From: Candidatus Heimdallarchaeota archaeon | GTDB taxonomy: Archaea > Asgardarchaeota > Heimdallarchaeia > JABLTI01 | DNA: 64,000 bases | Reading direction: 5' to 3' | Assembly (NCBI GenBank): GCA_019056785.1 | Contig: DXJV01000084.1 | Coordinates: 64,001-128,000 of the forward strand | In this document: piece by piece, positions 40,166-42,767 of the stretch | Numbering within the stretch: the stretch's first letter is position 1 | How the letters are laid out: each line of letters begins with the position of its first letter | Translations under genes and position numbers: made by a program | Notes under the pieces: generated by a model | The model's input: the letters and a program-made list of their open reading frames with translations, nothing else | What the model was told of the DNA's origin: nothing | Database searches by the model: none

Positions 40166-40615
40166 TCAGCAAACTTCCAATACAGTTATTGTAATGCCTG
40201 AGACGCCTTCGATTGAAGAAAGTTCTTTCTTTAAATCTTCGATGTTGATTTTTTTGAATTCTGTGGCTTCGATATAACCATCGAAAACACATTTTTCTTC
40301 AACAAAACAAATACCTGTGGAATAAAGCGCTTTTAATCCGAGCTTCAAAAAGAGATTCCCAATTTGCCTTAAGAAATCACTTGATAATTGCCCGATATCG
40401 ACTGCTAATTTGTATACTTTATTGGATGAAGTTGGAATTATTCGAATGATTTTATTATTTGTTGTCAAAATAACAACAGCATACTCTTCCACAACGGCCT
40501 GTAATGCTTCTTGAAAAGAACTCGGAAGCTCGACTGATTTTTCATGGTCAAGTTTTAATACTTCAGCAATAGTTATTTGAGGGATGTTAGTCTTTTTTTC
40601 TGCCATATTCTCCAC
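40166..40615 (-). CDS. ACT-like domain protein, paralog of 34375-34788
   Basis: YSTGICFVEEKCVFDGY and LSSIEGVSGI.I. Confidence 0.7.
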   Translation of the reverse strand: MENMAEKKTNIPQITIAEVLKLDHEKSVELPSSFQEALQAVVEEYAVVILTTNNKIIRIIPTSSNKVYKLAVDIGQLSSDFLRQIGNLFLKLGLKALYSTGICFVEEKCVFDGYIEATEFKKINIEDLKKELSSIEGVSGITITVLEVC

Positions 40616-40724: not shown

Positions 40725-41708
40725 TCACACGGTAGTCACGGAATTTGCCAAGATCTTTGGTGGCCCAGCCACTTTATAAGGATGAAAAGACCAACCTTTT
40801 GTCTGCAATTCTTTTGCAACCTGCCCAGCAAACTCAACCGTGGTTGCTACAGTAATAAGATTGCCCCCACCGATGAGATAATAAGCCATAATTCCTCTCT
40901 CTCGCATAACTTCTAACTGATGACAAAGACGCATCATTTCACGTTTTCGGACGAAAAGATTTACTCCCTCGAGTAACTCATGAGCATTTCTGATGTTTTC
41001 TTCAGCAAGAGTGAGCATTGTAATAAAGTCTCTTTTTCGTGCAGCAGAGACAATTTTAGACACCCAATCAGGGATTCTTTTAACTCTCTTCGGAAAGTTT
41101 GGATTGGTTACAATGCCCGCATGAATCTCATCAGCTGATAAGCGAGAAGGGTAATGGAAAGGAACAGAAAATAACTTTATGGCTTCCAGCTCCTCAGCAG
41201 AAGCTATTTGTTCAACTGTTAAAGGGCGAGAGTGAACTTTGGTCAAGGTTAAGCCCCCAAACAAACTCCTCCCGGCACTTTCAGAACCTTTCATAGCGTG
41301 AAGTAAGAGCTTTTCTTTTGGGTAATGTAAATCGAGAGCAGCATTTAAGCCAGTATAAAGTGCTGCTAAGCCAGAATCGGAGCTGCCACTGAAAATGTCA
41401 ATGTTTTTTGACTGAATGATAAGATCGCCAGTGTGCTGACTTTTTGCGACAAACTTCTTAATGGAATCGACAATTTGCCTCCCTCGAAGGCCCGTGATTT
41501 CGGTTCCGTTTAAAAAGAATTTTACAGTCGTACCCTTTGATGTGGGTGTGAAATGGATTGTGGTCTCAGTTCTGGTAGTTTCATTGGGCGTTGTCACAGC
41601 CAGGCCCATTGTATCATATAAAGGTGTTCGATCAGAATTAATGCCTCCGAGAAATACAATTGGGATTGTAGGATAAGCAACAGTTGTTACTACACTGGTT
41701 TTCGTCAC
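40725..41708 (-). CDS. Mevalonate 3-kinase (GHMP, MVD-like; Thermoplasma Ta1305 type)
   Basis: AYPTI..V.LGGI...RTPL, F.NGTE, SGSSDSG, SESAGRSLFGGLT, D.IH..IV, and AYYLIGGGN in place of the decarboxylase DAGPN. Confidence 0.82.
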   Translation of the reverse strand: MTKTSVVTTVAYPTIPIVFLGGINSDRTPLYDTMGLAVTTPNETTRTETTIHFTPTSKGTTVKFFLNGTEITGLRGRQIVDSIKKFVAKSQHTGDLIIQSKNIDIFSGSSDSGLAALYTGLNAALDLHYPKEKLLLHAMKGSESAGRSLFGGLTLTKVHSRPLTVEQIASAEELEAIKLFSVPFHYPSRLSADEIHAGIVTNPNFPKRVKRIPDWVSKIVSAARKRDFITMLTLAEENIRNAHELLEGVNLFVRKREMMRLCHQLEVMRERGIMAYYLIGGGNLITVATTVEFAGQVAKELQTKGWSFHPYKVAGPPKILANSVTTV

Positions 41709-41710
41709 TA

Positions 41711-42589
41711 CTAGTCACCTCGTTCTTTCTTAATTGCTTCAAGCAAATTGATCTTTGTGTTGATATTTTTACGGGTATTTAATTCACTGATTCTCTGAAT
41801 AATAATAGAAAGAATATCATCAAAAGCAGCCTCGAGATTGTCAACATTTATAACAGGGAGATTAAAACGGCGAGCATCTTTCTCTATATATTCCTGAATG
41901 ATCAAATACTGCTCTTGTTGAGCCAATAAGCGATCACCGGCACTTCGTAAGTGAGAAAAATATTCACGTTTAATAATTCTTTCATTGTATTTAGTTAAAT
42001 CAGTTATAACGAGCAGCAAGGGAATAATGCTTGGGTGAGTTAAAATATTTTTATCAAATTGCGAAGGATGAAAATGCAAATACTCTACGATCATACTTTC
42101 GCCATCTCGCAAGCCACGGTCCGTTATAACGCGTTGAACAGCTTTGTTCATGATCAATGATTGGGCCTGATATCCTTTGATGATCGTCACTTTTCTTTTT
42201 TCGCCGAAAATTTTCCAGGTGTTATATACGCTGGTGAAAAAGGCCTCATTTCCTTCCCGGGGGAGGATAGTACGAAGGGAAGATCTAAGAGCATCACCGC
42301 CCAAGACAATGCCAATATTAAGAGCTGCGGATAATTCCTTGGCAATTGTGGTTTTACCTACGCCTGGAATACCAGAGATAATAATAATAATTGGGAGTTT
42401 CTGTTGCCCACTTTTTACAAGAGAGTAATAGTCGGCAATAGTTCGATAGCGGAAAAAGTATTTCTCTCCATGCTGTAATAGCTTTTCCTCGAGTTCTTCT
42501 TCTGACCGAGAACCGTCGATGATGGAACTTATTGTACGTAAAGATAACCCTGTAGCAAGTAATGATGACAATTTATCCCAGAAGATCAT
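41711..42589 (-). CDS. 2-phosphoglycerate-kinase-family P-loop kinase, probable mevalonate-3-phosphate 5-kinase
   Basis: PIIIIISGIPGVGKTTIA.EL, GD.LR..LR, SVY..WK, G...Q, GES.I.E..H..P, Y..IQ.Y; 2-nt gap to the M3K gene. Confidence 0.78.
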   Translation of the reverse strand: MIFWDKLSSLLATGLSLRTISSIIDGSRSEEELEEKLLQHGEKYFFRYRTIADYYSLVKSGQQKLPIIIIISGIPGVGKTTIAKELSAALNIGIVLGGDALRSSLRTILPREGNEAFFTSVYNTWKIFGEKRKVTIIKGYQAQSLIMNKAVQRVITDRGLRDGESMIVEYLHFHPSQFDKNILTHPSIIPLLLVITDLTKYNERIIKREYFSHLRSAGDRLLAQQEQYLIIQEYIEKDARRFNLPVINVDNLEAAFDDILSIIIQRISELNTRKNINTKINLLEAIKKERGD

Positions 42590-42767
42590 GCTAGGTCCTC
42601 AACCAATAATTCATTGCTCTGTTGTCATTTGTACCTTTCAAGATATTAATCTTAACCTTATTTTTCATTAAAAGAGGAAGATTTTTAATTGGGAAACTTT
42701 GGAAAAGAAGCTAGAAAATACAAATCATTTATGAAATTGTTGGTTTAATTAAGAGGAATGATTGAAG

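Follow-up and report, generated by a model that had tools for sequence, protein, structure and literature searches.

Two adjacent genes on the minus strand of a 64,000-nucleotide stretch of Candidatus Heimdallarchaeota DNA (hereafter the window; G000:C84:64001-128000) are the subject of this study. The upstream gene (41711..42589, minus strand, 292 aa, ATG start) encodes a P-loop kinase of the mevalonate-3-phosphate 5-kinase (M3P5K) type, and the downstream gene (40725..41708, minus strand, 327 aa, GTG start) a GHMP protein of the mevalonate 3-kinase (M3K) type, which resembles mevalonate diphosphate decarboxylases (MVD); both are contained in the list of open reading frames (ORFs). Together with a decarboxylase and a further kinase encoded on contig C74 of the same genome, these two enzymes probably form a hybrid mevalonate pathway, in which a Thermoplasma-type front end is joined to a eukaryote-type back end. 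The genome comprises 2.87 Mb on 102 contigs and is 82.5% complete. An earlier interpretation of this DNA, made from the letters alone (the sequence-only reading), had suspected an Asgard source, and this is borne out by the proteins closest to the pair: they stem from Candidatus Heimdallarchaeota metagenome-assembled genomes (MAGs), one of them is 97% identical, and a record of the isolate HMA_bin2.83 (JABLTI01...) is among them.

As that reading had it, the two genes lie 2 nt apart; the ORF boundaries and the sequence of the junction (41709..41721, minus strand) agree in this. A Shine-Dalgarno-like GAGGTGA motif (41721-41715) inside the 3' end of the upstream gene is followed by the stop codon TAG (41713-41711), the dinucleotide TA and the GTG start codon of the downstream gene (41708-41706), which the motif precedes by 6 nt. 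This is the arrangement expected for co-transcribed, translationally coupled genes; the layout thus suggests coupling, and the pair is probably a two-gene operon. The putative sole site for its promoter is an A+T-rich intergenic region of 172 bp (42590..42761), which separates it from a divergent gene for ribosomal protein uS19. A sigma-70 scan of this region, with a model that is not applicable to archaea, returned 6 sites against 7.5 expected, and the counts of the promoter and terminator scans did not exceed the expectation from shuffled sequence. On the other side, 109 nt downstream of the M3K gene and on the same strand, lies an ORF of 149 aa (window 40166-40615), which is kept in all Heimdall relatives and matches, weakly, only the 'hypothetical' model PRK08577; it might share the transcript of the pair.

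The translation of the downstream gene carries VAYPTIPIVFLGGINSDRTPL, FSGSSDSGLAAL and GSESAGRSLFGGLT, and it has LIGGGN at the position of the decarboxylase D-x-G-x-N motif; all GHMP motifs quoted in the sequence-only reading, including the IGGGN at the decarboxylase Asp site, are found in it. In Pfam, it matches PF22700 (MVD-like_N, 59.1 bits) and PF21433 (M3K_C, 51 bits), both above the cut-off of 27. Its best solved relative is Ta1305 of T. acidophilum (4rkp; E 3e-32, residues 6-294), the next being an MVD (E 2e-9), and its top NCBIfam model is that of mevalonate-3-kinase (NF040848, EC 2.7.1.185; 160.3 bits). To compare active sites, we aligned 110 ORFs of the MVD superfamily from 80 related loci, of which 82 belong to the M3K class, with records named Heimdall, Aenigmat-, Micr-, Iain-, Mars- and Altiarchaeota and Thermoplasmata. 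All 82 of these, including the window protein, have lost the catalytic Asp together with the Lys that pairs with it. In the window protein, the Asp site, which holds Thr in Ta1305, is occupied by Gly or Ile, depending on the alignment, and the Lys site by Phe or Val. By the residue roles described in PMC9254496 and PMC5177888, loss of the Asp converts diphosphomevalonate decarboxylase (DMD) to a pure 3-kinase (PMC9254496). The window protein retains Arg147 and Arg189, and the same Arg pair is present in 82/82 M3K-class sequences. The triad Arg lies in the motif SESAGR, and Arg189 aligns with the essential Arg185 of the T. acidophilum enzyme (TaM3K), whose mutation nearly inactivates it (PMC9254496). 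In a quick maximum-likelihood tree of 75 sequences (LG+G4; Shimodaira-Hasegawa-like approximate likelihood ratio test, SH-aLRT, as the only support; outgroup root; long-branch warning), the M3K class forms a single clade with the Thermoplasmata and window proteins, apart from DMD, phosphomevalonate decarboxylase (PMD) and bisphosphomevalonate decarboxylase (MBD) (SH-aLRT 99). Within this clade, the Thermoplasmata branch first and the Heimdall sequences nest among those from DPANN. The downstream gene is thus supported as an ortholog of mevalonate 3-kinase.

For the upstream gene, membership in the family of 2-phosphoglycerate kinase (2PGK) and M3P5K is clear from the NF008996 and PRK04220 matches, as had been read from the sequence. 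Its best NCBIfam model is that of M3P5K (NF008996, EC 2.7.1.186; 133.7 bits), closely followed by the 2PGK model PRK04220 (123.2 bits), and it is the only member of the family in the genome. In the tree, it falls into a clade (SH-aLRT 100) with all the kinases encoded next to M3K and with five M3P5K orthologs of Thermoplasmata (two of these exceed the cut-off of NF008996), whereas 12 Heimdall 2PGK-like paralogs fall outside. The window kinase has an N-terminal extension of ~65 aa, which is absent from the ~200-aa Thermoplasmata enzymes. With the 2PGK that serves cyclic diphosphoglycerate (cDPG) synthesis in methanogens (PRK04220), it shares this extension, a similar length and the P-loop family; unlike that enzyme, it is always linked to M3K, and its clade is separate from the pairs of 2PGK-like paralogs in other Heimdall families. 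These results support the upstream gene as a probable M3P5K ortholog. As for the paralogs, the genomes of the Heimdall families f2-f5 mostly encode two of them (~300 aa, 46-98 bits) and no M3K, and the two genes mostly lie near each other on opposite strands (L109-L115; e.g. G011:C1:1453662-1455514).

The M3P5K-M3K pair is syntenic in 9 related Heimdall MAGs, which by itself proves little, since the whole neighbourhood is syntenic there. Yet the two genes are also linked, in the opposite order with M3K first, in ~33 DPANN-type or unclassified loci (records named Aenigmat-, Micr-, Iain- or Marsarchaeota, or unclassified). Linkage that recurs in two gene orders and in several archaeal groups probably reflects functional coupling, and these distant loci lend weight to the earlier argument that tight linkage supports both assignments, on which homology, phylogeny, active-site pattern and recurrent neighbourhood agree. 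In Thermoplasmata, no M3P5K gene was found within the fetched flanks of M3K (18/18 loci). In two Thermoplasmata genomes (L106:421-2085, L107:1453-3193), M3P5K directly adjoins an MBD-type gene, with M3K elsewhere. Among the 83 genomes of the Heimdall class, M3K is confined to one genus (JABLTI01), where it is present in 11/11 genomes. In the sister genus, the P-loop kinase gene lies near a contig end, so the M3K gene may lie past the assembled sequence. Given that the Heimdall M3Ks nest among those of DPANN, horizontal exchange of the module is suggested.

What, then, could follow the two kinases? HMG-CoA reductase and a polyprenyl synthase are present in the genome, and AcnX and UbiD of the archaeal-type route were not found in it. 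Neither hidden Markov models nor tblastn detected an MBD-type protein in the genome. Likewise, isopentenyl phosphate kinase (IPK) was not found there: tblastn with DPANN IPKs from the surveyed loci gave only a weak match to the PyrH gene, and the AA-kinase family is represented solely by PyrH (UMP kinase), carbamate kinase and an MfnE-like protein. Within the class, IPK is found in 0/12 genomes of family f1 (64-92% complete) compared with 69/71 elsewhere. As neither MBD nor IPK was found, the classical Thermoplasma route cannot be completed. The sequence-only reading, which had this organism using that route, is therefore only partly upheld: the first two enzymes and a decarboxylase exist, but the decarboxylase is of the DMD type, not the MBD type, neither this genome nor 11 relatives yielded an IPK, and a kinase derived from mevalonate kinase (MVK) is present instead.

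Besides the window M3K, the decarboxylase on contig C74 is the only MVD homolog in the genome. It scores 296.7 bits with the DMD model TIGR01240 (cut-off 171) and 49.5 bits with the MBD model (cut-off 560), and both its Asp/Lys/Arg triad and its GHMP ATP motif, GLASSAS, are intact. Furthermore, it has the second Lys of the DMD type, and Met where PMD and MBD carry His. For distinguishing DMD from PMD in this way, we compared 6n0x, a PMD, with 6n0z, presumably an engineered form of it, which differ at the Lys and His positions. The text of PMC11052028 served as the other source for the criterion. By this pattern, the C74 decarboxylase, like those of the DPANN operons described below, fits a diphosphate substrate.

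The second component on C74 is a GHMP kinase of 319 aa, encoded ~3 kb from the DMD gene, which passes the MVK model TIGR00549 (204 bits, cut-off 163) and has all the catalytic residues of MVK. Its identity to the canonical Heimdall MVKs, whose genes adjoin IPK, does not exceed 37%, and to a DPANN-operon kinase it is 43%. A canonical MVK gene adjoining IPK is absent from the genome, and no match to the phosphomevalonate kinase (PMK) models reaches the cut-off there; this is the only kinase of the MVK/PMK type, in place of a separate MVK and PMK. In 8/8 other genomes of the genus, the kinase gene directly adjoins DMD. In the present genome, the DMD and kinase genes (G000:C74:16942-17925 and G000:C74:20983-21939) are separated by two others (G000:C74:17962-20756; L101:5962-8756), one for a membrane protein of 501 aa with a MarR-type helix-turn-helix at its C-terminus and one for a 379-aa protein without a family match.

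The significance of this second pair emerges from the comparison with distant loci, where the operon occurs in two forms. Form A consists of M3K, M3P5K, MBD, sometimes a Nudix gene, and IPK, while form B consists of M3K, M3P5K, DMD and an MVK-like kinase; the latter four-gene operon is present in 9 distinct DPANN loci, with two more in which the contig ends past the DMD gene. The form A decarboxylases have a degenerate ATP motif, keep the His and lack the second Lys, whereas those of form B show the same DMD-type residue pattern as the C74 enzyme, with ATP motif and Asp kept. The remaining gene content is complementary: IPK exceeds the cut-off in 9/9 form A but 0/7 form B genomes, and an MVK-type kinase in 0/9 form A but 6/7 form B genomes, to which a truncated copy is to be added. 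Two form B genomes have no GHMP members besides the three of the operon. The Heimdall genus has the content of form B, divided into two pairs, M3P5K-M3K and DMD-kinase. Its DMD-linked kinases and those of form B constitute a clade of their own (SH-aLRT 99), apart from the canonical MVKs and marked by eight clade-invariant substitutions, one of them a gained Lys, with the MVK catalytic residues kept.

By contrast, the trees do not separate the M3Ks and M3P5Ks of form A from those of form B: a number of A/B pairs stand close together or as sisters, and the closest A/B pair of M3Ks is only ~0.07 substitutions per site apart. The two front ends should hence have the same enzyme function, with only the back end swapped, and the back end (MBD and IPK, or DMD and kinase) would appear to be an exchangeable two-gene module. 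One Micrarchaeota locus (L054:5956-9571) links M3K-M3P5K to a PMD-like decarboxylase with the His and an intact ATP motif, followed by IPK; it is an intermediate between the MBD and DMD forms.

Other combinations were encountered as well. In Altiarchaeota and unclassified records (L062, L063, L066, L067, L073, L075-L078), genes of the M3K class adjoin a canonical-type MVK; their products have lost the Asp/Lys pair, no P-loop kinase lies in the flanks, and IPK is sometimes nearby. This looks like yet another gene combination. In an Iainarchaeum locus (L041:5959-8761), the P-loop kinase is flanked by two M3K-class paralogs, the second of which has a long branch and GSSAS in place of GSSDS. Lastly, a MAG labelled Bathyarchaeia (L006, DATKZI010000039.1) is fully syntenic with the Heimdall locus, and a kinase with 55% identity (P0068) bears the label of a Zixibacteria bacterium; in both cases, the taxonomic label is probably wrong or the contig was put into the wrong bin.

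Four mevalonate routes are known. The gene content described here suggests a further one, in which mevalonate would be converted via its 3-phosphate, 3,5-bisphosphate and 3-phosphate-5-diphosphate to isopentenyl diphosphate (IPP), and we rate the chances that this route operates as about even. M3K would phosphorylate (R)-mevalonate to mevalonate 3-phosphate, and M3P5K would convert the latter to mevalonate 3,5-bisphosphate, the pair using two ATP. The MVK-derived kinase of C74 would then phosphorylate the 5-phosphate of the bisphosphate, and the DMD-type decarboxylase would remove the 3-phosphate together with CO2 to yield IPP directly. The assignment of the steps follows from the comparison of the two forms. 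In form A, M3P5K must be a 5-OH kinase, because no MVK exceeds the cut-off in any of the nine genomes, and the same role is expected of the form B enzymes, because they are close orthologs. One more kinase must then create the diphosphate, for which the MVK-derived enzyme is the only candidate; and phosphorylation of the bisphosphate is preferably placed before decarboxylation, because the decarboxylase is of the diphosphate type and no IPK was found. We infer the substrates, the order of the steps and a DMD that would need no ATP for its chemistry from the observed gene identities, orthology, conserved catalytic pattern, linkage and complementary gene content.

Mevalonate 3-phosphate 5-diphosphate is so far known only as a transient bound to DMD. 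We therefore put forward, tentatively and with a likelihood somewhat short of even, a fifth variant of the pathway for the JABLTI01 genus and several DPANN-type lineages, in which this compound would be a free intermediate and the back end an exchangeable module. Three kinases, M3K, M3P5K and an MVK-derived 'bisphosphomevalonate kinase', would act in succession, followed by a DMD that would not require ATP for its chemistry.

The relationship of the proposed route to established systems is accordingly a mixed one. With the Thermoplasma-type pathway (T. acidophilum M3K Ta1305, M3P5K Ta0762, MBD Ta0893 and IPK Ta0103; PMC5177888, PMC9254496), it shares two orthologous first enzymes: the M3Ks have in common the loss of the Asp/Lys pair and the kept Arg residues, and the P-loop kinases belong to the same clade. 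It differs in that MBD and IPK were not found here, in that the two kinase genes stand in a probable operon, and in that the host, according to PMC11052028, appears not to be an acidophile. With the eukaryote-type pathway (MVK, GHMP-type PMK and DMD, as in Sulfolobales), it shares the DMD, with a score above the DMD cut-off and the DMD-type Lys, and it would likewise yield IPP without IPK and pair an MVK-derived second kinase with the decarboxylase. Here, however, a single kinase of the MVK/PMK type stands where two C5 phosphorylations are needed, and beside it the genome encodes a dedicated 3-kinase and a P-loop 5-kinase.

Several points weigh against this interpretation. The main difficulty is the intact ATP site of the C74 decarboxylase, which is what a fully ATP-dependent DMD would show, and a fully ATP-dependent DMD makes a separate 3-kinase unnecessary. 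Since a classical PMD decarboxylates mevalonate 3,5-bisphosphate with ADP bound (PMC5177888), the site may instead reflect a need for bound ADP. In addition, the C74 kinase could simply be an MVK, because it passes TIGR00549 and keeps the MVK catalytic residues. Both members of the window pair miss the equivalog cut-offs of their best models, M3K with 160.3 bits against 440 for NF040848 and the P-loop kinase with 133.7 bits against 250 for NF008996; the NF040848 cut-off is reached in no genome of the class, and this model appears to have been built on Thermoplasmatales sequences. All trees were quick searches (LG+G4, SH-aLRT only), and the kinase tree contains no bona fide methanogen 2PGK, which makes the placement with M3P5K a relative one. 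Finally, the genome is incomplete, and one form B genome (G103) has a near-miss IPK at 118.8 bits against a cut-off of 120.

Among the alternatives, the one that holds up best also employs all four enzymes and explains the complementarity of IPK and MVK-like genes equally well. Here, the DMD-type enzyme would act as an MBD and produce isopentenyl phosphate, and the MVK-derived kinase would be a non-homologous IPK. A PMD can indeed decarboxylate the bisphosphate with ADP bound (PMC5177888), and the L054 locus, with M3K-M3P5K, a PMD-like decarboxylase and IPK, shows that intermediate combinations exist. On the other hand, the presence of the DMD-type Lys and the loss of the PMD/MBD-type His point to a diphosphate rather than a monophosphate as substrate. 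Moreover, to our knowledge no kinase of the GHMP family uses isopentenyl phosphate as a substrate, and on balance we regard this explanation as unlikely.

A eukaryote-type pathway would also accommodate many of the observations: the C74 kinase, with its TIGR00549 score and complete set of MVK catalytic residues, would be a true MVK, the DMD, with its ATP motif and a score far over the cut-off, would be fully ATP-dependent, and the P-loop kinase would be the PMK. P-loop PMKs exist in animals, to which the window kinase would be analogous. The M3K-like protein would in that case have an auxiliary or regulatory role or another substrate. This is difficult to reconcile with the fact that an M3K-like gene with all catalytic residues is present in every genome of the genus as well as in streamlined DPANN genomes of ~1 Mb, always adjoining the P-loop kinase. 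It is also at odds with the kinase tree, in which the M3P5Ks of form A, which must be 5-OH kinases, stand beside those of form B, some of them as sisters. We hold this possibility to be quite improbable.

Very little credit is due to a classical Thermoplasma route (M3K, M3P5K, MBD and IPK) whose last two genes were simply missed in a genome of 82.5% completeness. Although the M3K and M3P5K assignments on which it builds are sound, IPK was found in none of the genomes of the family (0/12 against 69/71 in the rest of the class), no MBD-type protein was found in the genome by either search, and Table S3 of PMC11052028 lists neither MBD nor IPK in five JABLTI01 MAGs. The least credible reading is that the pair does not act on mevalonate at all, the P-loop kinase being for instance a true 2PGK or both enzymes serving another hydroxy-acid pathway, for while the 2PGK and M3P5K models score nearly alike (123 and 134 bits), the JGI homolog annotations are divided between the two names and the equivalog cut-offs are missed, the genes are repeatedly linked to M3K, mevalonate decarboxylases and IPK or MVK-like genes in several archaeal groups, the kinase stands in the tree with Thermoplasmata M3P5K and not with the 2PGK-like paralogs, and the genome encodes HMG-CoA reductase, by which mevalonate is made, with no other complete route leading from it.

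Two further sets of kinases in this genome were considered as substitutes for IPK or MVK. The MfnE-like AA-kinase on contig C88 was rejected as a substitute IPK, as it adjoins an MfnF-like gene and scores 35 bits with the IPK model. Two GalK/MVK-like kinases on C18 and C32 (363 and 366 aa) are unlikely to be the missing MVK: such kinases occur in 69/83 class genomes, among them genomes with canonical MVK-IPK pairs, and their neighbourhoods are uninformative. The partner of the MfnE-like kinase gene encodes an MfnF-like protein linked to tetrahydromethanopterin (H4MPT) C1 transfer (G000:C88:27630-31211; L014), and a beta-RFAP synthase is encoded elsewhere in the genome (G000:C60; L023); these are cofactor-type genes that are unexpected outside methanogens. 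No GGGP synthase (PF01884) was detected in this genome, nor in any of the 12 genomes of its family. It is present in 2/47 genomes of families f2-f5 and 21/24 genomes of f6-f7, and its absence is not lineage-specific, because so few f2-f5 genomes carry it.

The presence of these genes in archaea other than the Thermoplasmatales has been noted before. M3K and MBD homologs were reported in Micrarchaeota (PMC6107057, 2018), three Thermoplasma-type genes were discussed in Ca. Micrarchaeum (PMC8975820, 2022), and M3K and M3P5K were described in the Heimdallarchaeia order JABLTI01 (PMC11052028; Microorganisms 2024, 12:707), so that the view of this route as characteristic of Thermoplasmatales, taken in the sequence-only reading, no longer holds. 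For five JABLTI01 MAGs, Table S3 of the latter work lists one copy each of M3K, M3P5K, PMK and DMD, and none of MVK, IPK, MBD, AcnX or AMPD; the MVK-derived kinase of C74 corresponds to the 'PMK' of that table, and two of its MAGs are among the syntenic loci of this study (L007, L009, L010). That paper remarks on a 'mixed combination' of Thermoplasma- and eukaryote-type genes and proposes no reactions; in the text consulted, neither the 2-nt spacing of the pair nor the four-gene DPANN operon, a module swap or an order of reactions is mentioned. The authors place the origin of the route in Heimdallarchaeia, which is not obviously supported by our larger but quick tree, where the Heimdall sequences nest among those of DPANN. 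A literature search of incomplete coverage found no biochemical description of the hybrid route. While gene presence in the lineage is thus already published, the new element is a testable hybrid pathway, derived from the operon and module-swap evidence.

The synthesis of isoprenoid precursors is of central importance for archaeal membranes and for arguments on the archaeal-to-eukaryotic lipid transition. The relevance near the eukaryote root that had been ascribed to this locus is nevertheless weak: of the 83 class genomes, only those of a single genus-level clade have the trait, which tempers the claim, and it looks to have been exchanged horizontally with DPANN, which leaves little direct bearing on the ancestor of eukaryotes. 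Its meaning lies rather in the evolution of the pathway itself. As the locus shows, Thermoplasma-type 3-phosphorylation is no acid adaptation peculiar to the Thermoplasmatales, and it appears to be combinable with a eukaryote-type back end, which suggests that mevalonate routes evolved by swaps of two-gene modules. If the proposed sequence of reactions is true, it would bring with it an enzyme activity that is new, the phosphorylation of mevalonate 3,5-bisphosphate by a kinase, as well as a natural case of DMD serving as a pure decarboxylase. Both would be of use in pathway engineering and in tracing the divergence of PMD, DMD, MBD and M3K.

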